A stretch of 53,308 nucleotides of DNA from a virus. Position numbers and translations under genes: made by a program. This document shows positions 25,229-50,471 of the stretch, in pieces (position 1 is the stretch's first letter; each line of letters starts with the position of its first letter). The DNA lies in IMG/VR virus record IMGVR_UViG_3300005836_000021, positions 1 through 53,308 of that record; one strand, given 5' to 3'. A model generated the notes under the pieces. The model saw only the letters and a program-made list of their open reading frames with translations. It was not told the origin of the DNA and ran no database searches.

Positions 25229-25420
25229 TCATACCTGGGTGGGCACACACACCCAGGGTCGTTCGGGGCACAGGTCCAACGGCCTGCGCTTCTCGACTTG
25301 TGGGCTGGGGCTGGGCACGGGTTCGGGTGCGGGTACCACCACGCGGCCCGCGGTGTAGAAACCCAGGCCGACCCACGCAGCCAACCACACCAGCAACGCC
25401 ACCAGCACCAGGGCCCGCAT
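25229..25420 (-). CDS. Small membrane-anchored Pro-rich protein (63 aa; alternative start at 25435)
   Basis: MRALVLVALLVWLAAWVGLGFY is a TM segment, followed by PAPEPVPSPSP. TGATG junction with the upstream fibre gene. Confidence 0.45.
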   Translation of the reverse strand: MRALVLVALLVWLAAWVGLGFYTAGRVVVPAPEPVPSPSPQVEKRRPLDLCPERPWVCVPTQV

Positions 25421-26034
25421 CAGTCCACCGGCCACACGATACCCCAGCTCCCCGAGTATATGATGCTGTTCGACCCGGTGCTGACCAACTGCGCTGCCTG
25501 GAACTGTACCGTTCCCGCGTTTGCGCCGTTCACGAGGTACCCGTGGATGGTTTCAGTTTGTGCGTTGGGAGCAGCGGACGTGGGCCAATCGATCTGAGTG
25601 CCAAAAGCGACGGCCGGTCCGCCGGTCGTTTGAAAGGACGTGTTCAGGAAGACAATCGACGTTGGCGACGCAGGCCCAGTAAATGTCGCCTTCCAGTCTG
25701 CGGCGCCCGCCCCTGTGTGCATGATGTAGAGCACAAAGGCATACGTTTTGCCGGCGGCCACCGCGAACGCTAGGCCCGTCACGTCGCTCAAGGTGGTGTT
25801 GGAGTTCTTGGTGAAGTTGGAAGTGGTACGGAAGAACGAAGGCGTACGGACGGTCAGGTTAGTGAGCGCGGACCCGTCCAGGCTGGCCAGGTACGTGCTG
25901 TTCAAGGCCCGGATCTTCCCGTTGTCATCGATGGGGGTTTTCAGGACGTTGAGGTTGTCCCGGATGTGGGTGTTCATCAGCGAGGCCGTAACGGTCTCAC
26001 CAGGCGACCAGGTGCGGGGGGTGGTCCAGGCCAT
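25420..26034 (-). CDS. Tail fibre / receptor-binding protein, paralog C (204 aa)
   Basis: The N-terminus MAWTTPRTWSPGETVTASLMNTHIRDNLNVLK is shared with 29059..29991 and 29993..30280. Confidence 0.6.
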   Translation of the reverse strand: MAWTTPRTWSPGETVTASLMNTHIRDNLNVLKTPIDDNGKIRALNSTYLASLDGSALTNLTVRTPSFFRTTSNFTKNSNTTLSDVTGLAFAVAAGKTYAFVLYIMHTGAGAADWKATFTGPASPTSIVFLNTSFQTTGGPAVAFGTQIDWPTSAAPNAQTETIHGYLVNGANAGTVQFQAAQLVSTGSNSIIYSGSWGIVWPVD

Positions 26035-26037
26035 GGG

Positions 26038-26592
26038 TTATGCGCCTCCAAAAAAGGACTTCAGGTTCTCCAACAGCGTGGCGTTTTCCGCCACCGGAAC
26101 GGGGTCTTCCGCTGCAACCTCGACGGCCAGTTGTGTAGCAGCCTGCACCAGCACCGACTTGAAAAAGGCAGCGCACTGGGGACACAGGTGCGCGCCTGTG
26201 ATCTCGGGGTGCGGTTCGGTGGCTGGAACCTTGGGGTGGCTGCACAGCCAGCAACTATCGGGGTCGGTAGCCACAGGCCAGGCCACGGCGCCGCTGCGGT
26301 AGGGGTCGAGGAATCCCGTGCTGCCGGTTTGTCGCTCGATCGGTTCCAGGTCCTGCGCCTTTGGCACCTTGCCGCACGTGCCGCATGCCACCTGAACAGC
26401 GCGCACCCCGTTGAGGTCGATCACGTGTCGCAGTGCGGGAAGGTTGGCCTTGTGCGTGGCCGGCGCGAAGTCCCCGGGCATAAGGGCGCGCAGGTAGAAC
26501 GCTGGGTGCCCCTTGTGCTCCACGGCCCACCAAACCTCGCCGATGTTCGGCGTGGTGGGAAGGCCGTACCAGTCCAGCATTGGCCGCTTCAT
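26038..26592 (-). CDS. Cys-rich hypothetical protein (184 aa)
   Basis: CGTCG and CWLC...CPQC are zinc-ribbon-like pairs. TGATG junction with the upstream gene. Confidence 0.5.
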   Translation of the reverse strand: MKRPMLDWYGLPTTPNIGEVWWAVEHKGHPAFYLRALMPGDFAPATHKANLPALRHVIDLNGVRAVQVACGTCGKVPKAQDLEPIERQTGSTGFLDPYRSGAVAWPVATDPDSCWLCSHPKVPATEPHPEITGAHLCPQCAAFFKSVLVQAATQLAVEVAAEDPVPVAENATLLENLKSFFGGA

Positions 26593-27830
26593 CAAACTCC
26601 TCCCAGGTGCACCACAGCCTGCACCACAGCCTCAGATGCCTGAGCCCCGGGGCCTGACACCAGTTCACCAACCAACCGCAGCCCCGCCTCTTCGGCCAAG
26701 CCAGCCAACCCATCCTTGCGCAGCAGGGTGTCACCATAGGCGTACACCACCAGGCGCCGGGCGACCCGCGGCAACGTGGCGCGAACCAAAGCGGCATCCG
26801 CCGGCGCCACCTCGAGCAGGCGCCCAGGCATCAGCAACACCACGTCGAAAGGGGTGGGTGGTGGCACATGATTGCGGCAGAAGTCAACCAGGTTGCCCTG
26901 CTGCACACCGGGGCCGCCCTGGGCCGCACGGGCGGGGTCGATTTCCACACCCTGTCCATGGCCTCCCAACTGGCGCAGCAAGGCGCCGTCACCACAACCC
27001 AGGTCCAAGGCACTGCCCACTGGGCCCACCGCGCGGGCCACGACGGCATGTGCCGCCTGCATGGCGCCGTAGGTGGCGAACCCGTTCAATTCGTGTGACG
27101 GTGCGGGTGGCAGCGCGTTGCCCTGGCCTGCCCTGACGAGCGTTGTCGAGCCTGCCTTGTCAGTGCCCAGCATGAACCTGAAGTGGGGTGTGGTCACGAT
27201 CGCCAGCGGCCCGTCGGCATCGTACGTGACCGGCAGCCGCAGCAAAGCCTCGATGGCCGCCACGTCAGCCTCAACCTCACGGCCCAGGGCCAGATAGGCA
27301 CGGGCTTGCGCGATGGTAGCCTCACAGGTCGCACTGCACGGCAGGTGCGGCACCAGGCGCACGCCCAGCCACCTCAGCAGGATGTTGGTTTCCCAGGGGC
27401 CCTCAACAGTGGCCATGGCCCGGGTGGTGTCGGTGCTTTGCCGCGCAATCCATTCGCGTGCGAAGAACTCACGGCAGCACTGCGGGAAGCCCAGCAACTG
27501 GCCCACCTGGTCATCGTCGGGCCCCGCGGCCCACGCCTTGTGCCAGGACGCGGCCAGGGCTGCCGTCAGCGTGACTGCGGCCCGGTAGTTGCCCTCGGGG
27601 CGCTGCCCCAAGATGACCAGATGCAGGCCCTGCCGGGCGCAGTCGGCCGATGCCTGGGCCAGCTCGTGCGGCTCCAGCACCACCAGGGCGCTGGTGCGCA
27701 AACGGCCCACGCTGGCCAGCTCGATCTGTTGCCATGCCTCTCGCGCGCGCTCGAGCACGGGCCCCCACGCGGTGCGGTCGGCCGTAGTCGGCCACTGGGG
27801 CCCGTGGGCCCACTCTTGCAAACCGTTCAT
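26592..27830 (-). CDS. Two-domain protein: unknown N-terminal domain (GFPQCCREFF motif) plus a C-terminal class I SAM-dependent methyltransferase
   Basis: ALDLGCGDGALLRQL is motif I and FDVVLLMPG follows. ATGA overlap with the rSAM gene. Confidence 0.6.
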   Translation of the reverse strand: MNGLQEWAHGPQWPTTADRTAWGPVLERAREAWQQIELASVGRLRTSALVVLEPHELAQASADCARQGLHLVILGQRPEGNYRAAVTLTAALAASWHKAWAAGPDDDQVGQLLGFPQCCREFFAREWIARQSTDTTRAMATVEGPWETNILLRWLGVRLVPHLPCSATCEATIAQARAYLALGREVEADVAAIEALLRLPVTYDADGPLAIVTTPHFRFMLGTDKAGSTTLVRAGQGNALPPAPSHELNGFATYGAMQAAHAVVARAVGPVGSALDLGCGDGALLRQLGGHGQGVEIDPARAAQGGPGVQQGNLVDFCRNHVPPPTPFDVVLLMPGRLLEVAPADAALVRATLPRVARRLVVYAYGDTLLRKDGLAGLAEEAGLRLVGELVSGPGAQASEAVVQAVVHLGGV

Positions 27831-29062
27831 GTTACCACCTCTCCACCCAGTATACCACCCAGGTCGGTGTGGTCGCCATGCGGCACGTCACCATGGTCGC
27901 CATGGTCGTGGTGCACCACCTTGGCCGTGTGAACTACCAGGGCCATGTTAAGGCGGTCGGCGATGCGGGCCTGTAGGTCGGGTGCCAGGCTGGCGGGCTG
28001 CACACCCTTGGCCACCAGTTCTTGTTCCACGCGCTCGAGCACCGCGAACCAGGTCGGGCAGTCGACGCTGCGCTTGCGCCAGTCACCACCGATGGCCGTG
28101 CCTGGGCACTGACCCCCGCACTGCAAGAAGAACCGGCACCCGTGGCACCCACCCTCAGCCTGGGGTGTCTGCCACAACACCACCTGCCGCACCTTGACCG
28201 TCGTGTCGGCTGGCAGCCATTGCTTTCCGTCCTTGTGCACCCGTTGGCACAGGCCGCGGGTACCGTCGGCCTCGATGCCGTGCACCGCTGGGGTCGACCA
28301 GGGGTCGCAGTCCGACCACACACACCCCGCGTCGGCGTCAGCGTTGCGCAGCTTGGCCTCCACATCCGTGAATAGGTCAAAGCGCAGGCGCAGGCTGGCC
28401 TCTAGGTCATGCGCAGCAAACAGGGCCGCCACGTTCTGGCCGCTGGGCAAGGCAAGCATGCGCCCAGGGCCATCCAGTTCCAGCAGGTGCAGCCGGGCGT
28501 GCTTCAGCCCCACCGCGTCCAGGTCGCGGAACCATTGCAGCAGAACCGGAAGGCGCTCAGGCGTGGCGTTCAGCTTGTGTAGGGTCACGATAAGGCTGGC
28601 CCCGATACCATCGGCCAGACACCTGCGCAGCATTGCCTCGCTGTGCGCCGTGGCCGCGCGGGTCTGCTCCTGCGTTCCCGCCACGCGGGCGTCGTTCAAA
28701 GGGCCTGGGCCGTCGATCGAGAACCCCACGTGCACCCGGTACTTCTTGAAGGCGGCCAGGTGTTCCTCTGTGATTGGGCGCCCGCTGGTCTGGACCCCAT
28801 TGTGGCCATACCGCTCCAGGCCAAAGGCCCACAGCTTTTCCAGATCGGCCAACGGAGCCAGCAGCGGCTCCCCTCCGAACACGCTGAACCCATCGGGGCC
28901 CGCAGCGGCCTGCACCGCGGCCTGCACCGCAGCATGATCGATACCCGCGGGCGCCGCGTTGCCGCTGGCCCGCCGCACGGTGTGCTGATAGCAATACGTG
29001 CAGGACAGCCCACCAACCTGGGCGCCACAGCGCATTCCCGTGACGTTTACCTCAACGCTCAC
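27827..29062 (-). CDS. Radical SAM enzyme with a SPASM-type C-terminal domain and a His-x-Asp tail
   Basis: The Cys pattern RCGAQVGGLSCTYCY is a non-canonical Cx8CxxC. FGGEPLL is the SAM GGE motif. CHGCRFFLQCGGQCPG is the SPASM CxxCx5Cx3C. The C-terminus is HHDHGDHGDVPHGDHTD. GTG start in a GTGA overlap with the fibre gene. Confidence 0.7.
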   Translation of the reverse strand: MSVEVNVTGMRCGAQVGGLSCTYCYQHTVRRASGNAAPAGIDHAAVQAAVQAAAGPDGFSVFGGEPLLAPLADLEKLWAFGLERYGHNGVQTSGRPITEEHLAAFKKYRVHVGFSIDGPGPLNDARVAGTQEQTRAATAHSEAMLRRCLADGIGASLIVTLHKLNATPERLPVLLQWFRDLDAVGLKHARLHLLELDGPGRMLALPSGQNVAALFAAHDLEASLRLRFDLFTDVEAKLRNADADAGCVWSDCDPWSTPAVHGIEADGTRGLCQRVHKDGKQWLPADTTVKVRQVVLWQTPQAEGGCHGCRFFLQCGGQCPGTAIGGDWRKRSVDCPTWFAVLERVEQELVAKGVQPASLAPDLQARIADRLNMALVVHTAKVVHHDHGDHGDVPHGDHTDLGGILGGEVVT

Positions 29063-29991
29063 GGCACCACCGTGGGCTGCGAAATCGCCACCGTATCGCC
29101 ATGGTCGCTATGGTCACCATGGGGGGCATCGCTGTGCGGGGTGTCGGTGTGTGGCACGTCGCTGTGCGACACATCTCCATGGGGCACACTGGCTGTGTCT
29201 CCGTGGGCCGCGTCGCCATGGGCCAGGTCCGCGTGGCCAGGGCCGTCGTTGTGGTCTTGATGTGTTATGTCGTTGTGGGCCGCGTCGGTGTGTGGGATGC
29301 CGGCGGTGTCCGTGTGTGCCACATCCCCATGGGCATCCCCGTGGCTCACGCTGTCGGTGTGGTCGTCGTGCACCGTGCCGTCCGCATGAGCCACGTCGTT
29401 GTGGCCACGGCGCTCGAGCGTACCCGATTCCCGCACCCAGTGGGTATAGGTTTCCACCCACAGACTTCCTCCGATGGCTGAGGCGTCGGTGTGGCTGGCC
29501 GCCGTGCTGTCGCTGCTGTGGCACAAGCGCTCATCCCCACTGGCGTCAATGTAGTGGAAATCGTTTCCCTCCGCCCACACGCTGCCTGCCACCGCGCCAG
29601 CGGGGGTGCTCACGTACGTGCCCAGGAACCGGTACTCGGTTGTCTGGTTGCTGGCAATGTGGTGCAGGTACTGGCCCTCGATCCAGTTTCCCCTCCGTAG
29701 ACCCCCGCCCAGGTCCTCGTACTTGTCCGCACCCACCGGCAGCACCAGCCGGCTGGTGCCTTGGAACCGGTTGCGCCCCGCGGTGTAAGAGGTGCCTGCG
29801 GTGCGGGTGGCCAACCCCGTCAGTGCGGTGGGATCTAGGCTGGCCAAGGTGGTGCTGCTCAGGTCGGTCAACCGCCCTGCATCGTCCCTAGTGGTTTTGA
29901 GAACCAACAGGTTGTCACGCAGGTGGGCGTTCATGATCGCCGCGGTCACTATCTCGCCGTTGGTCCACGTGCGGGGGGCGGTCCAGGCCAT
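29059..29991 (-). CDS. Tail fibre paralog B (310 aa) with a C-terminal His-x-Asp repeat domain
   Basis: It has the shared N-terminal MAWTAPRTW...RDNLLVLK domain. Residues 197-299 contain 21 H-x-D triplets. Confidence 0.65.
   Translation of the reverse strand: MAWTAPRTWTNGEIVTAAIMNAHLRDNLLVLKTTRDDAGRLTDLSSTTLASLDPTALTGLATRTAGTSYTAGRNRFQGTSRLVLPVGADKYEDLGGGLRRGNWIEGQYLHHIASNQTTEYRFLGTYVSTPAGAVAGSVWAEGNDFHYIDASGDERLCHSSDSTAASHTDASAIGGSLWVETYTHWVRESGTLERRGHNDVAHADGTVHDDHTDSVSHGDAHGDVAHTDTAGIPHTDAAHNDITHQDHNDGPGHADLAHGDAAHGDTASVPHGDVSHSDVPHTDTPHSDAPHGDHSDHGDTVAISQPTVVP
29095..29403 (-). repeat. Degenerate ~15-nt (pentapeptide H-x-D-x-x) coding repeat
   Basis: Translation reads HNDVAHADGTVHDDHTDSVSHGDAHGDVAHTDTAGIPHTDAAHNDITHQDHNDGPGHADLAHGDAAHGDTASVPHGDVSHSDVPHTDTPHSDAPHGDHSDHGD. 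Confidence 0.85.
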
Positions 29992-29992
29992 G

Positions 29993-30280
29993 TTAGATGG
30001 CCCACTTATCGGCGCCCACAGGCACCACCACGCGAGTGGTACCCCCGCCGTTGAAGTTCTGCACCCCCGCCGTAAAGTCGTTTCCGGCGGCCAGCTTGGC
30101 CACGCCCGTCAGGTTGACCCCGCTGGTGTCGCCCAGGTACGTGCTGTTCAGAGCGGGGATCTTACCGTCGTTGTCGACTAGCAGCTTCAGGTGCGTGAAG
30201 TTGTCTCGGACCTGTTCGTTCAGGTCCGAGGCACCCACCAACTGCCCTATTGCCCAGGTTTTGGGCGTTGCCCATGCCAT
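29993..30280 (-). CDS. Short tail-fibre paralog A (95 aa; anchor domain only)
   Basis: MAWATPKTWAIGQLVGASDLNEQVRDNF...RVVVPVGADKWAI parallels residues 1-90 of paralog B. Its stop is 1 nt before the ATG of B. Confidence 0.55.
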   Translation of the reverse strand: MAWATPKTWAIGQLVGASDLNEQVRDNFTHLKLLVDNDGKIPALNSTYLGDTSGVNLTGVAKLAAGNDFTAGVQNFNGGGTTRVVVPVGADKWAI

Positions 30281-30290
30281 GCCTGTACCC

Positions 30291-31964
30291 TCAGTTCAAG
30301 AACGTGTTGCTGTTCAAGGTGCTGCTGTCCAACACCCAACCCACCGCGAACAGGCCATACCCCAGCACTGTGGTCTCATCCAGCTCCGTACGGCCCGGCA
30401 AATCCAGTACCCAGAACTGGGCCTTGTTCACAGGGGCCAGATCCCAGGTCACCATCACCACCCCTTCGGGCCGCAGCTCCAACGTGACCCCGTTGATGAA
30501 GTACGGGTCCGCCACCAGCCCCACGCTGCCACTAGTGACCGAAATTCGGTCGCTTATCTCTGCGTTGAATGCCTGCTCCACCGTTTCATCGTCCCAGTTG
30601 GCCATAAACGTAACCGTTTCCACCCGGGTGGTGGCGTCCTTGTGCAGGCTGATTATGAACTGGGCCAAGTCCACCGCGTTGCTGGGACTGCTCTGGTAGG
30701 GCATGTCGTACCCGTACACGTTTTCCCCATAGGTGGCCAGGCTGTCCGCGTCGTTCAGGTCGGCCAGCACGGGCTCGAAGTCGTACAAGCCACGCCCGCG
30801 CAACTGCAAGAACCACACGTGCCCGTCGTTGGGGCCATTGTTCGTGATAGTAACGTCGGCGCTGTTGCCCCCAAAGGTAGGGGTCACGGTAAGCTGGGCG
30901 CTGTAGTCGCTGCCACTGCCGTCGGCTGCGCTGTTGAACTTGTAGTCGGTGGTGACCACAGGTGCCACCATGTCCACCCCGCCCACCCGCTGGGCGACCT
31001 GTGCGGGGTCCCGATAGGGGCAGTTGATGGTGACGCTGGTGTTGCGCTGGATTTCGATGCTGCTGCCCAAGTTGAACAACACGCTGGTGGCCGCTGCGTC
31101 GCGCCTGCGCGGGTGAATGCTTACCTGGCACCGGTTGATGACGTTGTCGCGGGCGTGGGTTACGGTCATGCCCAGGATCTGTTCATCCTCGTCCATGGCG
31201 AACCGAATGCTGCCCTCGCCACCCCGGCGCTTGCGGCCCTCAAACACGGCCACACCAGCCGACACAAACATGATGCCATATTCCGACATCACCAGCTTTT
31301 GCAGTTCCGACAGCACCCGGCTGGTTTCGTCCTGGGTGTTGTCCAGAGCGTACGGGTACACGTCAGATCCGGTGCCGCTGATCGTACCCCCGGGTGGCTG
31401 TCGGTCAACGGCTGCCACCAGGGTGGCAAACAGGGCGTCGGACTGCACGCTGGTTTGCACGGCCAGGCCCTTCAGCTTGGCCCGCGCGGCCTCGTCCATC
31501 CAGTCAACACAGTGCACCTGCACCGTGGGCCGCTCGACCCCGGGGTTTGGGATCACCTGGTCAATGGTGCCCTGCCACTTGATCTTGTCGCCATACAGCG
31601 GGTGGTTCAACACCAGGCGCACAGGCAGCCCGATGTCAAAGCCTGCCAGAGCGGCACCGCCCCCGGGGCTGTAGTACCCGCGCACCCCGCCGCGGTTGTT
31701 CTCGGTGTTGTCCATCTCGAACGAAAGCTCGCCCGGGTCCGCGACCCGGTCCTTGGGTGTGTTGCCGTGGATGCCCCAGCTTGCCTTCACGGGGCCCACG
31801 ATGTCGGTGGAGAAGTCCACCCACCCGTCGATGTCGAACTCCACCCGGCTGCGGGTGCCCCCGCTGGTGGTGGGGCCAGTGCCACCACTGCCCGCACCGG
31901 TGCGCGGGCCGATGGTGGCCGCCCCGCCAATGGTGCTTCCGATGCTGAAGGGGTTGGTGCCCAT
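30291..31964 (-). CDS. Distal tail (Dit-like) / baseplate protein, extended (557 aa)
   Basis: It lies downstream of the tape measure. The N-terminal half resembles siphovirus tail-family proteins (recollection only). Confidence 0.5.
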   Translation of the reverse strand: MGTNPFSIGSTIGGAATIGPRTGAGSGGTGPTTSGGTRSRVEFDIDGWVDFSTDIVGPVKASWGIHGNTPKDRVADPGELSFEMDNTENNRGGVRGYYSPGGGAALAGFDIGLPVRLVLNHPLYGDKIKWQGTIDQVIPNPGVERPTVQVHCVDWMDEAARAKLKGLAVQTSVQSDALFATLVAAVDRQPPGGTISGTGSDVYPYALDNTQDETSRVLSELQKLVMSEYGIMFVSAGVAVFEGRKRRGGEGSIRFAMDEDEQILGMTVTHARDNVINRCQVSIHPRRRDAAATSVLFNLGSSIEIQRNTSVTINCPYRDPAQVAQRVGGVDMVAPVVTTDYKFNSAADGSGSDYSAQLTVTPTFGGNSADVTITNNGPNDGHVWFLQLRGRGLYDFEPVLADLNDADSLATYGENVYGYDMPYQSSPSNAVDLAQFIISLHKDATTRVETVTFMANWDDETVEQAFNAEISDRISVTSGSVGLVADPYFINGVTLELRPEGVVMVTWDLAPVNKAQFWVLDLPGRTELDETTVLGYGLFAVGWVLDSSTLNSNTFLN

Positions 31965-32991: not shown

Positions 32992-35436
32992 TTACTGCGT
33001 TTGCAACAGGCCATCGCGCATGGCCCGCTTCATGGTATACGGCAACCGCTCCATGGCCTGGATCAGCTTGTCCAACTTGCCCAGGGCCTGGTCGCCACTG
33101 AGCCCACGGCCACCCATGGCGCCCGCGATCTCGCCGGCCAAAACGTGGCCTTTGCCCTGTGGGATCACGGCCTCGGGCCCGTGCAGCAGCGTGGCGCTCT
33201 CGCTCCCGAAGTTCACGAAGTCCAGGCCCGGGGTACCTTCCTTGAAGCCCGCGGGCTGGGATCGGATCTTGTTCACGTTCGCCATGCCTGCGGCCAGCGC
33301 GGCAGCCACCGCGGGCAGGCTGGCAGGCCAGGGGATGCTGGCCATGGTCTTGGCGACGGCCATGTAGGTGCTGATCAAGGCGCCGGCGATGGCCGCCGAC
33401 TTGTGCTTGCCACCCAACGACCCGAGGATGCTGACCGTGGCGTCACCCCACCGCTCCATGGAATCCGTCATACCCAGGGTGGCCTTACCCGTGGCCTCCC
33501 GCTTGGCCTTTTCTGCTGCCACCCACGCGTCCTCCAGCTCCTTGGTGGTGTACAACTGGCTGGTCCTCATGGCGTCGTACAACTGCCGGGCGTTGTCCGC
33601 CGTAGTGGCCAGCTCCGACTGCTCCTTGAAGCCAGCCTGTTCCGCAGCACGCTCACGCCCCTTGTAACTGTTGGTGGCATCCTGCCGCATGCCGTCATAC
33701 TTTTGCTTGATCAAGGCGGCCAGCCGGGTGTACTCGGCGGTCTCGCCCTGGGTCATGGCCAACAGGTTCCTCAGTTCCAGGTCCTCGCTGGCCTTCAGGT
33801 CTGCCAGGCGCTTGGCCTGCCCTGCCAGGGCGTTGCCCGTGATCTGTCGCTGGAGGTTGAACTCCAGTTGCATGATCGCGTCCGTGGACGTGCGGGCAAT
33901 GCGCACCTGTGCCACATAGTGCTGATTGATGGCCGCCACCATTTTGGCGTACTCGTTGCCCTTGCCCCCGGTCAGCTCGCGGGCCTTGAGCAACTCCATG
34001 TTCTTTTCGTTTTCGATCTCTTGCAGGCGCTTGGCCATGCCCACCTTGCCGTCCAGGGCCACCTGCTGCTGCAACTTGAGCAGGGTTTCAGCAATCTGCT
34101 TCGCGTTCTTGATGCGCTTCTTGCTGATCTCCTCGTCAGCCCCGCCCAGGTCAATGATGGCCCGCTTGGTTCCCTCCGTGGCATGGGTTTGCGCACCCTG
34201 GGCATCAACCATGGCCTTTCGGGTGGTGACGATAACCCCGTTTACCTTGGCCAGCACCCCCAGTTGTTCCTGGCCGGACTTGAGTGCCGCCTGGCCTTGA
34301 GCTGTGAACCCACCAGCCAGCTCGCGGGTGCTGGTGGCCAGTTCCTTCATGGCCGCGACGTCTTCCTTGTGCACCCCGGAAATGGTGGGGCCCAACTTGG
34401 CCGCCACCTCACCCAGCTTCACCAGGCCGTCCATGGCCGTGGCAACGCCCAGCACCATGCCCGCGATGAACGCATTGAACGCGAAGTTGGCACCAGCCCA
34501 GGCCAGCACGAACTGGCCCGCACCAAACACCGCGGCCTGGGCCACGTACGTGGCCACGATGACCACCTTCTCGAGGGCATGCACCAGCAGGTCAATCAGG
34601 GTAGTTTGTGCCCCACCGAACGCCTTCTGGATGGCCGTGGCTGCGCTGTTCATGCCCGCCATAAGCACGGGGCTACGACTGATCCCAACGCCCAGGGCGT
34701 CGGTGAAGTTCTGCATGGCCGCCTTAGCCTGCTCCACCCGATCCCCAAAGCGGACCGCTTGGTCGTGACCCGTGCCCAGTTGCTTGTGCAGCACGCTGGT
34801 GACCGCGGCAGCGGTGGCGGCCGCCTTTTCGTGCGCAGTGAGTGCTTTGGCGTCCAGGCCATGCGCGTCCGCATACGCCTGAGCGGCCGCCTTGCCGTCC
34901 ACCATCAGGCCCAACTGCTTCAGGTGCGTGGTACGCCCCGTGGCGATGCTGTTGGTCAGGGTTTCGAAGGCCTCCTTGGCGTTGCCCCCCGTGCGCTCAG
35001 CCAACATTTTGGCCCCCTCGGCCAGGGTGCGCATGTCGGCCTCGCTGGTCTTGAGGCCGTACGACAGCATCTTGGTGCCCACCTGCATGAGGTCGAAGTC
35101 GGACACCGTGCCGCGCACACCCTCGCGCATGGCGCCCAGCATAACCTGGGCGGTGCTGCCGGCGGCCTCCGACATCTGGTGGAAGCCCTCAGCAACCTCG
35201 TCCACCCTAGTACCGCGTTCGCCCAGCTCCACCACCCCAACGACCACTTCCTTCAGCACGCTGATGGCTTCGCTGCCCCAATGTTCAATGGCGGCAGCGT
35301 TCACCACCGTGTTCAGGCCGCTAAGGTGCTCCTTGGTTTTGTCAGCCTCTTGGCGGACGCCCTCCATGGCGAACTTGTACTGCTTGTCGTCGACGGTGAT
35401 CTCCAGTACCGCCCGCCCGAGCTTTTCGTCAGCCAC
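32992..35436 (-). CDS. Tail tape measure protein (814 aa)
   Basis: Supported by its size, its position after the chaperones, and a long Ala/Gly/Lys/Glu-rich helical composition with hydrophobic segments. Confidence 0.8.
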   Translation of the reverse strand: MADEKLGRAVLEITVDDKQYKFAMEGVRQEADKTKEHLSGLNTVVNAAAIEHWGSEAISVLKEVVVGVVELGERGTRVDEVAEGFHQMSEAAGSTAQVMLGAMREGVRGTVSDFDLMQVGTKMLSYGLKTSEADMRTLAEGAKMLAERTGGNAKEAFETLTNSIATGRTTHLKQLGLMVDGKAAAQAYADAHGLDAKALTAHEKAAATAAAVTSVLHKQLGTGHDQAVRFGDRVEQAKAAMQNFTDALGVGISRSPVLMAGMNSAATAIQKAFGGAQTTLIDLLVHALEKVVIVATYVAQAAVFGAGQFVLAWAGANFAFNAFIAGMVLGVATAMDGLVKLGEVAAKLGPTISGVHKEDVAAMKELATSTRELAGGFTAQGQAALKSGQEQLGVLAKVNGVIVTTRKAMVDAQGAQTHATEGTKRAIIDLGGADEEISKKRIKNAKQIAETLLKLQQQVALDGKVGMAKRLQEIENEKNMELLKARELTGGKGNEYAKMVAAINQHYVAQVRIARTSTDAIMQLEFNLQRQITGNALAGQAKRLADLKASEDLELRNLLAMTQGETAEYTRLAALIKQKYDGMRQDATNSYKGRERAAEQAGFKEQSELATTADNARQLYDAMRTSQLYTTKELEDAWVAAEKAKREATGKATLGMTDSMERWGDATVSILGSLGGKHKSAAIAGALISTYMAVAKTMASIPWPASLPAVAAALAAGMANVNKIRSQPAGFKEGTPGLDFVNFGSESATLLHGPEAVIPQGKGHVLAGEIAGAMGGRGLSGDQALGKLDKLIQAMERLPYTMKRAMRDGLLQTQ

Positions 35437-38253: not shown

Positions 38254-39270
38254 TTACGTGGCCAGTGTGACCTTGACCACCGCGCGGGGGCGGAGGCACA
38301 GGGCCAGGGGGTTCGACTGGGTGTGCAGCTTGGTGTAGCGGTTCAGCTCGTCGTCCACCACCACCTTCGCGTAGATGGGCAGGCCAACCGTGTTCACGGT
38401 TTCCTGGAAGTCCGCCGGCGCGAAATAGGTGCTGAAGATGTTGCTGCCCTCGGGGAACAGGTACGCTTCCGCATCGGGGAAGAAGGGGGTTCCGCCCGTG
38501 CTGCCGCGGTACTCCTCCCACGTGACCCCGCCGTACACGAACGAGCGGGCGTTGGCCTGCTGCTGAAGAAGCGACTGGGGGTCGGCGAAGCGCAGGGTCT
38601 TGACCACGCCCAGGTCCGCGCGCAGCGTGTCGAAGAAGTCCTTGCCGCAGAACGCCCGATACCCGCTGATGGGTTCGGCTCCCAGTTCGTTCTCGATGAG
38701 CCGCTGCAAGGCCACAACCTCCCCGCGCAGGTCGCCACCCTCGTCGGTGGTGCTGTTGGGGCTGACGGTGCCGGTCTGCTGCGCCACGTTGAACTCCGTG
38801 AACAGGTTGTGCAGCGTGCTGCCGTCAGCGTCCTTCACCAGGCCCTGGATGGCCCCCGCGCGCAGGTGCTCGAGCGTGACCTCGTGCATGGCACGCAGGT
38901 CCGTGAGCCGCTCATTCACGATCGCGCTGATGGCGTCGTTGCTGTTGGGGCTACCAAACGCACGCACGCCCTGGATCTCGTCGGCCAGGACCTTGCTTTC
39001 GCGCTCGAGGTGCGACACCACAAACGACCGGGCGGTGCGCTTCTGCGCGCCGATGGTGCTGCCAGGCCCGCCGCGGGGGCTGGTCTGGATCAGGGAGAGG
39101 CGGCCATCCTTTTCCTCGATCACGATCGTGGTCGTGGTGATGCCCCGCTCGCGGAACAGCCCAAGGGCGCCAATGCGCCCAGGCTTGTACGGCGCCTTCA
39201 GGATCGCGTCGGTCAGCGACGTGAAGCTGAAAGCGTCGTTCTTGAAGATGTCCAACGCCAACGATGCCAT
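38254..39270 (-). CDS. Major capsid protein, lambda gpE-like family
   Basis: 338 aa. LFRERGITTTTIVIEEKDGRLSLIQTSPRGGP fits the major-capsid-protein-E pattern. It follows a gpD-like gene. Confidence 0.8.
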   Translation of the reverse strand: MASLALDIFKNDAFSFTSLTDAILKAPYKPGRIGALGLFRERGITTTTIVIEEKDGRLSLIQTSPRGGPGSTIGAQKRTARSFVVSHLERESKVLADEIQGVRAFGSPNSNDAISAIVNERLTDLRAMHEVTLEHLRAGAIQGLVKDADGSTLHNLFTEFNVAQQTGTVSPNSTTDEGGDLRGEVVALQRLIENELGAEPISGYRAFCGKDFFDTLRADLGVVKTLRFADPQSLLQQQANARSFVYGGVTWEEYRGSTGGTPFFPDAEAYLFPEGSNIFSTYFAPADFQETVNTVGLPIYAKVVVDDELNRYTKLHTQSNPLALCLRPRAVVKVTLAT

Positions 39271-48590: not shown

Positions 48591-50471
48591 TCAGGCGTCT
48601 GGGTTCCAGTTTCTTGTGCGTGCCTGCCGCGGGGCGGGGGGCACCGCGGGGGCCGCAACGGGCACGGCAGCGTCATCGATCTTCTTGGCCAGGGCCGCGA
48701 AGTGTGCGGGGGTCGGGCAGATAACCCGATAGGCGGCCAGGGCCATACCCATGCAATCCAGCGACTCGTTTCGGTCATGCCCCGGGCGCACCGCCCACCG
48801 CTTGCTGGGTACGCCCAGCTTGTTGCGCTGCACCAGCAAGTGCTCGGCCGTCAGCTCGGTAAAGAACGCGTCGCCCACGGTCATCGGGAAGTGGATCACA
48901 CCCGGGCCCGCCGGTTCCTCAAGGCGCAACCGCGAGTAGATCAACCCCTTAACTTGTGACGCGTCAACCACGTACCGCAGCACATTGCCCTGGGCAGTGT
49001 TCAGGATCTTGCTGGCCGACACCAACTGCCCGTTTATACCGCCATCCTTGCCGATGCTGGCGTACACCCGGCGGCCCTGCCGCGGCACGATGGCCGCGTA
49101 CACCGAGGCCGTGCGGTGCCCCAGCGCATCAACCAGGGTGCACTGCACACGGGTGCCGCCTCCCTCCTCGCGCTCCCATAGTTGCAGCAGCAGTTCATCA
49201 AGCTCGCGCCACACGTCTGGCCTGCTGGGGTCTCCAAAGAACGGCGCCGGGCGCTCGAGCACCCAGCTTTCCTCGCCGGCGCCCCAGCCCATCACCAGCG
49301 CCTCGAGCCGGTCATCCTGCGTGTCCACCCCGCAGGTCAACACCTTGCACCCCGCGGGCACGGGTTTGGGGTACACCACCCGTCGCATCAACAGGCTGGC
49401 GCTCTCGATCCTTTCGCTGGGCACCTCCCAACTTTCCCCGCGGGTCAGGTTCACCCAGCTTTGCAGGGTCTCGGGGCGCTTCTTGGCGGCCAGGAAGGCC
49501 GCAACCATTTCGCTCAACCGGGTCCAGGGCGATACGATGGCCCACACCTTATACCCGCGTACCCCCTCGAACGGTGCGGTGGGCACCCACTGGGCCGCCG
49601 CAAACATGGCGGCACGTTCGCTGTCCTCGATCCGCCCTCCGCAACCAGGCGCCGCACCCGCCGCAACCTCGTCGGGGGTCAGGCCCTCGTTGTGCTCAAG
49701 GTGGGCCGTGCTGGGGTCGCCAGCCTCCCACCGCACATGATGCCACCCTACCTCGAACGCCCTGCCACAGCGGGGGCACGGGGCCATCAGCACCCGCTTG
49801 TCGCTGCGGGCGTACCAGTCCTCAATCCGGCTGGCCCCCTTGATGGTGGGGGTGCTGGTCAACACGATCTTGCGGCGCCTGTACGCGGCGGTGCGCTGCA
49901 CCACCAGCGCCAGCGGGTCTCCCTCAGGGGTGGCCGCCGGCCAGCGGTCTACCTCGTCGCACCACACATACCGCACTGGCCTGCTGCTCAGGCCCGCGGT
50001 GCTGTTGGCGCCGGCCAGGGTCAAAGGCAGCCCGTTGATGCGCTTGTGCAGCACCGAGTTATCGGTGGTCTTGGCCTTGTGCGTGCCCACGTTCAAAGCG
50101 GGGCAAGACTTGAGCGCGCCGGCCAGGCGGTCGGTAGACACGGCGCCGGCCAGTTCTAGGGTGGGCAGCACCAGCATGCCAGGCCCGGGGTCGACCCCGT
50201 AGGCGTAGAGCAATGTTCCAAACAGGCCCTCGGTCTTGCCTATCTGGCTGCTGAACAGCAGCACCAGATATTCCACCTCGGGGTCCACGAAGTCGTTCAG
50301 TGGTGCACGCAGGTATGGGGTGCGGCCCGTGCGCCACGGCCCAGGGAAGGGGCTGGGGTAGTCACGGCCCACCACCCGGTTCCCGTCGAGCCAGTCGGCC
50401 ACGTTGAGCCGCGGGGGCGGGGTGTAGGTGCGCGCACTGGCCCGCAGGATGCGGGCCCGGGTCGCGTTCAC
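48591..50471 (-). CDS. terL: Terminase large subunit (lambda GpA family)
   Basis: 626 aa. LLFSSQIGKTEGL is a P-loop. It lies downstream of a Nu1-like gene with a 4-nt overlap. Confidence 0.85.
   Translation of the reverse strand: MNATRARILRASARTYTPPPRLNVADWLDGNRVVGRDYPSPFPGPWRTGRTPYLRAPLNDFVDPEVEYLVLLFSSQIGKTEGLFGTLLYAYGVDPGPGMLVLPTLELAGAVSTDRLAGALKSCPALNVGTHKAKTTDNSVLHKRINGLPLTLAGANSTAGLSSRPVRYVWCDEVDRWPAATPEGDPLALVVQRTAAYRRRKIVLTSTPTIKGASRIEDWYARSDKRVLMAPCPRCGRAFEVGWHHVRWEAGDPSTAHLEHNEGLTPDEVAAGAAPGCGGRIEDSERAAMFAAAQWVPTAPFEGVRGYKVWAIVSPWTRLSEMVAAFLAAKKRPETLQSWVNLTRGESWEVPSERIESASLLMRRVVYPKPVPAGCKVLTCGVDTQDDRLEALVMGWGAGEESWVLERPAPFFGDPSRPDVWRELDELLLQLWEREEGGGTRVQCTLVDALGHRTASVYAAIVPRQGRRVYASIGKDGGINGQLVSASKILNTAQGNVLRYVVDASQVKGLIYSRLRLEEPAGPGVIHFPMTVGDAFFTELTAEHLLVQRNKLGVPSKRWAVRPGHDRNESLDCMGMALAAYRVICPTPAHFAALAKKIDDAAVPVAAPAVPPAPRQARTRNWNPDA

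Follow-up and report, generated by a model that had tools for sequence, protein, structure and literature searches.

The proven motifs of the triceptides, whose radical S-adenosylmethionine (SAM) enzymes act as three-residue cyclophane synthases, are YxD, FxN, WxN and WxD, together with HAA, HNR and HTK, on which the link runs from His C2 to a C-beta (PMC11002830, PMC11499958). Tyr C3 is joined to Asp C-beta by YxdB, Phe C4 to Asn C-beta by XncB and OscB, Trp to Asn or Asp C-beta by OscB, and His C2 to Ala, Arg or Lys C-beta by HaaB, YhhB and HtkB (PMC11002830, PMC11499958). In a second system, the HXS anti-phage defence, the His-Xaa-Ser effector HxsA is matured by the radical SAM enzymes HxsB and HxsC with HxsD, and the modification reported is a single +8 Da on one SHRSS motif (PMC13128918). 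Here we describe a tandem H-x-D array in a 53,308-base stretch of viral DNA with 66% G+C (IMG/VR record IMGVR_UViG_3300005836_000021, hereafter the window), carried by a 310-residue tail-fibre-like protein whose gene adjoins those of a radical SAM/SPASM enzyme and a DUF483-methyltransferase. We put the probability at roughly 60% that this array is a C-terminal multi-site substrate domain, matured by the two adjacent enzymes through cyclophane-type chemistry. The features on which this reading turns are as follows.

29095..29403, minus strand: array of 21 H-x-D triplets (fibre residues 197-299), the proposed multi-site substrate
29485..29493, minus strand: a 22nd triplet, HTD (residues 167-169), standing apart on the upstream side of the array
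29059..29991, minus strand: ATG-started open reading frame (ORF) of the 310-residue tail-tip/fibre-like array protein
27827..29062, minus strand: radical SAM/SPASM enzyme, 411 residues, GTG start (PF04055, 36.2 bits against a cut-off of 29.5)
27863..27913, minus strand: the enzyme's own C-terminal tail HHDHGDHGDVPHGDHTD (residues 384-400), with the same triplet as the array
26592..27830, minus strand: DUF483 and class I SAM methyltransferase, 412 residues (DUF483 at residues 1-240, methyltransferase at about 250-405)

Comparison with triceptide and HXS systems

Like the triceptide systems (XncB, OscB, MscB, YxdB, HaaB, YhhB, HtkB and ChlB), this locus encodes an enzyme with an apparently full SPASM domain and no N-terminal extension beside its candidate substrate. 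Repeated aromatic-x-X motifs are likewise common to both, and the set used by the family of the window (HxD, HxN, YxD, FxN, FxD and WxD) overlaps the proven one. A radical SAM core, the SPASM Cys residues and an adjacent aromatic-X-X substrate are thus all present, and what the locus lacks for membership are a score above a curated cut-off and a short precursor. Triceptide precursors are short leader-core peptides, whereas the array here sits on a structural or secreted protein of 310 residues (up to about 1,660 elsewhere) with 20-90 motifs. Also unlike the triceptides, the enzyme has an obligatory DUF483 partner (in many cases a methyltransferase fusion), itself ends in a tail bearing the motif and is encoded in a virion morphogenesis operon.

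HXS resembles the window in pairing a tandem His-x-X protein with a radical SAM gene alongside, and in a biology that concerns the entry of phage at the cell envelope (PMC13128918). It is, however, a bacterial defence with five HxS repeats, a peptidoglycan-binding domain, two radical SAM enzymes plus HxsD and no DUF483 (PMC13128918). In the window the triplets are HxD instead of HxS, there is a single radical SAM gene, and its partner is the DUF483-methyltransferase; among the NCBIfam models, that of HxsB scores 19.4 bits against a cut-off of 370 and that of HxsA has no match to the fibre. HXS is the nearest described system to combine a His-x-X repeat with a radical SAM enzyme, yet it differs from the window in every component.

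An H-x-D array maintained at the protein level

The 21 triplets that a first-pass annotation had read at fibre residues 197-299 map exactly to 29095..29403 and occur in the order it listed: HND HAD HDD HTD HGD HGD HTD HTD HND HQD HND HAD HGD HGD HGD HSD HTD HSD HGD HSD HGD. Its statement that each His of the segment is followed by x-Asp holds for all 21 His. Six His of the protein lie outside triplets, all of them N-terminal of residue 185 and none across residues 185-310. Over residues 167-299 (133 residues) there are 22 HxD, compared with a mean of 4.0 and a maximum of 12 in 20,000 shuffles. The period of about five residues ascribed to the array is fair as a mode, but His-to-His spacing runs from 3 to 8 residues and the array is not strictly periodic. 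A degenerate DNA repeat of about 15 nt, also proposed, was not found by Tandem Repeats Finder, which reported only a 9-nt stretch in three copies at 29096-29122 and a 12-nt stretch in 1.9 copies at 29322-29344. Conservation of the H-x-D repeat is confined to the protein level.

The array protein begins with an N-terminal anchor domain (MAWTxPRTW...LPVGADKY), which is followed by three hairpin-like GSxWVEGxxLHYID repeats, the HxD array and a C-terminal QPTVV tail. It has no family match in Pfam, NCBIfam or PHROG and no sequence match in the PDB, where the best hit (E = 0.34) is a porin and neither a solved fibre tip nor gp37 is found. The reading frame is real, with 99 orthologues at 40-61% identity in the protein database, all of them annotated as 'hypothetical'; the plus-strand ORFs that overlap the array gene are GC-rich artefacts.

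When eight orthologous fibres (48-66% identity) were aligned, the H and D columns were invariant, H167 and D169 included, and the middle residue and the spacers drifted; purifying selection acts on H and D only. Among the 99 orthologues the number of triplets varies from 9 to 40 (median 23), and 95% of the C-terminal His lie inside an HxD. The array was therefore neither absent nor frameshifted in close relatives, an outcome that had been named as one arguing against a role, and the length comparison proposed at the same time returned a variable triplet number along with a retained H/D pattern. Variable length, together with a fibre that has no family or fold match, would suit a low-complexity disordered spacer whose adjacency to the enzyme came about by hitch-hiking in a mobile tail-fibre cassette. 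We regard this as highly improbable: a spacer accounts poorly for invariant H and D columns amid drift, for the confinement of nearly all C-terminal His to the triplet and for the presence of the same array, with the enzyme, on unrelated carriers.

Linkage of the array to the radical SAM and DUF483 genes

To measure the linkage from the enzyme side, we collected 160 loci by enzyme homology alone, 80 from viral contigs and 80 from genomes (Acidobacteriota, Actinomycetota, Chloroflexota, Cyanobacteriota, Myxococcota, Planctomycetota, Bacteroidota, Pseudomonadota and others), and added two Thermus phage loci to give 162. An HxD array, defined as an ORF with at least 8 HxD per 60 residues no more than 5 kb from the enzyme, was present in 112 of the 162 loci and lay on the enzyme's strand in 109 of these 112. 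When [HFYW]-x-[DN] was used as a general motif instead, arrays were present in 131/162 loci, 128 of them on the enzyme's strand. Such an association is not background, since only 171 of 14,830 six-frame ORF segments were dense. The array ORF ends at the enzyme start in 67 loci; in others the array follows DUF483. The first-pass annotation had also suggested a pattern search for co-occurrence with radical SAM genes. A DNA pattern for four HxDxx units was used for this reverse search, and of the 20 arrays with at least 20 triplets that it returned, 16 have the enzyme in the locus; three of the four without it are truncated by a locus or contig end.

Within the window, the fibre stop and enzyme start codons overlap (GTGA), as do the enzyme stop and DUF483 start codons (ATGA), and the gene of a 185-residue protein comes next with overlapping or abutting codons. 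The fibre, enzyme and DUF483 genes are, by this arrangement, translationally coupled, and the enzyme genes are flanked on both sides by genes of fibre-like proteins where the tail module ends. GenBank phages with similarity were limited to the Thermus phages phiMa, Cumys and phiLo. In phiMa and Cumys, a 343-residue protein with about 54 HxD triplets, the radical SAM enzyme (46% identical to that of the window) and DUF483 directly follow the baseplate and collar-fibre genes, and in phiLo a 475-residue HxD-array protein, the enzyme and DUF483 lie inside 6 kb. Given the GTGA overlap, the Thermus trio, the 131 of 162 loci and the 16 of 20 in the reverse search, the first of two readings offered earlier, in which the array is a substrate of the adjacent radical SAM/SPASM enzyme, appears strongly supported by gene linkage.

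Arrays are found at the C-terminus of carriers that range from 170 to 1,660 residues and have folded N-terminal portions, and they may reach 93 triplets. The carriers include the 310-residue fibre, homologues of a 557-residue protein of the window, proteins of 1,600 residues in Chloroflexota and cyanobacteria, and 500-residue proteins with a signal-peptide-like N-terminus. A Pfam search of seven large array proteins of other loci gave only Laminin_G_3 and a sub-threshold coiled-coil match. Two proteins of about 500 residues from Vicinamibacterales genomes (L103:7790-9304 and L107:7697-9184), with about 84 and 81 HxD respectively, are encoded downstream of DUF483; in the former, long PHTDA runs come after a signal-peptide-like N-terminus (…RRALIRAGWVAPLV…ASAQ). 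Judged from these features, the two apparently represent a secreted, non-phage version of the system.

The radical SAM/SPASM enzyme and its DUF483 partner

The cluster-binding residues C12, C21 and C24 of the enzyme are invariant in 28 aligned relatives. Eight further Cys (247, 252, 272, 306, 309, 315, 319 and 335, including a CX2CX5CX3C motif) are invariant in the same alignment, and with them the SPASM domain is complete, with ligands for both of its auxiliary Fe-S clusters. Against a cut-off of 27, the generic SPASM model TIGR04085 gives only 17.7 bits, and a full-length match to anSME covers the SPASM region. The enzyme has no N-terminal leader-binding domain. The spacing of the first Cys motif (window 28991-29029, enzyme residues 12-24) is a non-canonical CX8CX2C that results from a five-residue insert (the GAxxGGLS insert), which is shared with a subset of relatives; those without it have the canonical CX3CX2C. 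In four family members (P0270, P0315, P0341 and P0324), an intein-like insert of about 340 residues (about 135 in P0324) falls exactly within the radical SAM Cys motif (C..C..YC, intein, YQ), which is restored only upon splicing.

The enzyme family comprises 423 clusters at 50% identity (E < 1e-30, in a library of 1.84 billion representatives), and many of its members are fused to DUF483. In two of them, P0243 and P0272, there is in addition an aKG-HExxH peptide beta-hydroxylase, a domain known from peptide tailoring (TIGR04267, cut-off 40; scores of 78 and 73 bits), and these fusions place the family in peptide or protein tailoring. The best NCBIfam matches of the enzyme are the cyclophane-forming AmcB (50 bits against a cut-off of 425), DynA (49 against 450) and YhhB (41 against 445), followed by anSME; XyeB (26 against 450), GrrM/OscB (23 against 310) and FxsB (22 against 370) score lower, and all of these values are far under the cut-offs. 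The models of PapB and QhpD are weak matches. Searched against the PDB, the family profile aligned with anSME over its full length at 3e-16 and with the triceptide synthase ChlB at 2e-15.

The enzyme itself ends in the triplet. A tail of the form HGD..HGD..HGDHTD is present in 24 of the 28 aligned family members, nine triplets are found in that of Thermus phage phiLo, and among the 65 loci with at least three enzyme-tail triplets, 58 have a neighbouring array. This tail could be a substrate in cis, act as a pseudo-substrate or tether the enzyme to the array.

Four Cys are invariant in the DUF483 domain (C118, C119, C165 and C169, in GFPxCC ... HLPCSxxC). An AlphaFold2 (AF2) model of the full DUF483-methyltransferase reached a predicted local distance difference test (pLDDT) score of 92.8, and its C-terminal domain matches SAM methyltransferases. 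The DUF483 proteins of the Thermus phages have no methyltransferase domain; DUF483 is therefore the core partner.

Substitution within the motif

Some loci scored as having no HxD array carry another motif on an orthologous fibre with the same hairpin repeats and a QPV-type C-terminus. There are 37 FxN and 6 HxD in L015, mixed HtD, HtN and FsN in L028, L033, L037 and L045, more HxN than HxD in L047, L053 and L059, and YxD plus HxD in L074 and L086. The general motif thus appears to be aromatic-x-Asp/Asn, which is the vocabulary of triceptide cyclophane synthases. An aromatic residue at position i combined with a CH2-C(=O)X side chain at i+2 suits the demands of a ring-to-C-beta cross-link; Phe and Asn answer to neither a metal site nor a function based on charge. 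N-glycosylation sequons were considered for the FxN arrays and rejected, as Asn in L015 is followed by Thr-Pro and not by x-Ser/Thr. Of the enzyme columns compared between Asp-type and Asn-type arrays, residue 275, near the invariant C272 and R274, tracks the difference best: it is Thr in 87% of Asp-only loci and, among 18 Asn-rich ones, Gly, Ala or Ser in 16. These 18 loci are two or three clades only, however, and the residue in the window is Val.

The same substitutions bear on the second reading offered earlier, that of a metal-coordinating needle. The tip of gp37, the long tail fibre of phage T4, binds iron through HxH motifs in its C-terminal needle, and a short His motif repeated at the C-terminus of a tail fibre is what the window has in common with it. 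On this account the array would be an unmodified trimeric needle, His and Asp being classic metal ligands, and the radical SAM and DUF483 genes would serve something unrelated, for example DNA modification. A preprint describes the trio of Cumys and phiMa (a protein of unknown function, radical SAM and DUF483, the same as in the window) as an 'rSAM module' that also occurs in prophages, and suggests a DNA-modification role; homologues of the enzyme and DUF483 lie near deazapurine DNA-modification genes in some cyanobacteria, and the H-x-D array of the Thermus module goes unmentioned (10.1101/2024.08.14.607894).

We consider the needle improbable. Orthologous fibres that keep the enzyme have Phe or Tyr in the position of His and Asn in that of Asp, the 37 FxN of L015 among them; metal ligands would not withstand such exchanges, which disfavours metal ligation as the conserved role. 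The array and the enzyme are linked whatever the carrier, and the enzyme bears the triplet too. A DNA-modification role of the radical SAM module is unlikely in view of its position in a tail operon with overlapping codons, its linkage to the array and the peptide-hydroxylase fusions. In gp37 the motif is HxH; here it is HxD, with residues that can be replaced by Phe, Tyr or Asn, a radical SAM enzyme alongside and no sequence similarity to gp37 or to any solved fibre. The gp37 needle is a superficial analogue only, and the His/Asp version of the array could still bind metal after modification.

Proposed maturation of the array

The array with its conservation, the operon, the association of array, enzyme and DUF483 across the family and the aromatic-x-Asp/Asn vocabulary are established by the comparisons above. 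From the linkage and the motif vocabulary, we infer that the array is a substrate, and likewise the cross-link chemistry, incorporation into the virion and the biological role. In the proposed mechanism, the radical SAM/SPASM enzyme would act on each triplet in the manner of a triceptide synthase. It would remove a hydrogen from C-beta of the i+2 Asp and then bond this carbon to the imidazole of the His two residues earlier, presumably at C2 by analogy with HaaB, YhhB and HtkB, and a row of about 22 small rings would result. The DUF483-methyltransferase might add a second modification (methylation) or present the array to the enzyme. Such maturation would give the tail a stiff, stapled rod at its distal end, resistant to heat and proteases, and the His/Asp version of this rod may hold metal ions.

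Several observations weigh against this cyclophane reading. On the side of the chemistry, the His-to-Asp link itself is not among the cross-links of the triceptide literature compared, and the candidate substrate is full-size and has no leader peptide, unlike known triceptide precursors. The enzyme falls under every named cyclophane synthase cut-off in NCBIfam, and its similarity to anSME, which oxidises and forms no cross-link, is about equal to that to ChlB. For the DUF483 N-domain alone (AF2, pLDDT 92.6), no significant fold match was found in the PDB or BFVD. As to linkage, about 30 of the 162 enzyme loci have no array inside 5 kb (several of them are truncated), and arrays also occur without the enzyme: a collagen-like fibre with 12 triplets in L242/L195 has no enzyme within 10 kb downstream, and the fibre orthologue L285:7001-8005 carries 28 HxD. 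Finally, the tail-fibre label, reasonable as it may be by position, has synteny as its sole basis. L285 is a small element that encodes an integrase and a primase-like protein, has no radical SAM or DUF483 gene within 7 kb and no other tail genes, and is possibly a satellite with its own fibre that relies on a helper phage.

The resemblance to anSME also leaves some room for a different chemistry on the same array, such as C-alpha epimerisation, oxidation or decarboxylation at Asp C-beta, or inter-chain cross-links within a trimer, with the methyltransferase acting on the product. The linkage evidence is identical for this account; the family is as near to anSME as to ChlB, with all cyclophane models far under cut-off; and abstraction of an Asp C-beta hydrogen by SPASM enzymes is represented by PapB and QhpD, both weak model matches here. 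Like the window enzyme, anSME has a SPASM domain; its substrate, from which it takes a C-beta hydrogen, is a full-size protein with no leader, and it is the best full-length match of solved structure. The score of the enzyme against the anSME model TIGR03942 is nevertheless 34.5 bits with a cut-off of 349, there is no sulfatase or C/S-x-P-x-R motif in the window, and the pairing is that of an aromatic residue with Asp or Asn. That strict i/i+2 pairing, in which H, F, Y and W interchange at one position and D and N at the other, is the signature of a ring-to-C-beta cyclophane and is unneeded for the epimerisation or oxidation of one residue. Another chemistry is accordingly rather unlikely, though not negligible.

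Extending the cyclophane reading to the whole family, we tentatively propose that tailed phages of many bacterial phyla carry in the tail operon a RiPP-type radical SAM cyclophane synthase that staples a virion protein through tens of carbon-carbon bonds from aromatic residues to Asp or Asn, with DUF483 as its obligatory partner, and that the enzyme is tethered or regulated via its own motif.

The array gene within the tail operon

The window is, by its gene content, a tailed-phage genome. PHROG matches on the minus strand come in the canonical order: large terminase (48591-50471), portal, head protease, major head protein (38254-39270), neck and tail-terminator. An ORF of tape-measure size follows, then a 336-residue protein with a baseplate match, and downstream of it proteins of 557 and 95 residues, the 310-residue array protein, the radical SAM enzyme, the DUF483-methyltransferase and proteins of 185 and 204 residues. 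The locus L286 has the same tail-module gene order. The further features of this operon are given below.

32992-35436, minus strand: 814-residue ORF of tape-measure size, following the neck and tail-terminator genes, without a PHROG match
30291..31964, minus strand: 557-residue tail-tip protein, whose homologues elsewhere carry an H-x-D array at their own C-terminus
29993..30280, minus strand: 95-residue protein made up entirely of the anchor domain, a third paralogous copy of the fibre N-terminus
26038..26595, minus strand: 185-residue Cys-rich protein of the same operon, with tblastn matches in six loci only, the closest relatives
25420..26034, minus strand: 204-residue second fibre-like protein with the same anchor domain and no array

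This context is late and morphogenetic, and not one of DNA metabolism. The description of the array protein as a tail fibre agrees with its position at the end of the tail module; on the other side, its sequence matches no known fibre family and no solved structure. Homologues of the 557-residue protein with a fused array occur in L162, L050, L023, L014 and L017 (34-42% identity over nearly the full length), and the fused array comes after an FWxLExxGRxELD motif. The anchor domain (MAWTxPRTW…LPVGADKW/Y) is present in three paralogous copies, on the 95-, 310- and 204-residue proteins, which suggests that the three may be alternative tips docking to one site.

Thermus phages and the closest relatives

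In phiMa (L001:5779-7110) and Cumys (L002), a 97-residue anchor ORF, which corresponds to the 95-residue protein of the window, and the HxD ORF lie in one frame with a single stop codon between them. The junction reads …LPVGTDRWAP*GGRMPRPG…, and the window has both parts as one 310-residue ORF. The split in the two Thermus phages may reflect stop-codon read-through or two separate subunits. In phiLo (L283:6386-7515), two IS605 OrfB (TnpB-type) transposase ORFs are found immediately upstream of the radical SAM gene; the array protein phiLo_137 is encoded 4.4 kb from that gene in convergent orientation, with the transposase ORFs in between.

The closest relatives of the window module, with 69% enzyme identity, are L083 and L084, two related prophages about 2 Mb apart on one 5.1-Mb contig (CBDFGD010000002.1, Vicinamibacteria). 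From these two relatives, the host group is likely to be Acidobacteriota.

Implications

No prior description linking HxD arrays, the enzyme family and phage tails was found in the literature searched, in which subscription journals were thinly covered. The chemistry is known from small bacterial peptides and not from virus particles, and what we describe is most likely a triceptide-like maturation of phage virion and secreted proteins. If so, this would be the first radical SAM post-translational modification of a phage structural protein and would yield a covalently stapled tail-tip element, taking radical SAM cyclophane chemistry beyond small secreted peptides and into the building of virus particles. 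A function could be assigned to the orphan DUF483 and to several hundred enzyme clusters that are so far uncharacterised, and protein engineering would gain a heat- and protease-resistant, genetically encoded, repeat-addressable staple. The module is directly testable, being carried by three cultured Thermus thermophilus phages (phiMa, Cumys and phiLo). For the biology of the phages themselves, it would be the phages' counterpart of the HxS-repeat defence that bacteria deploy at DNA entry.

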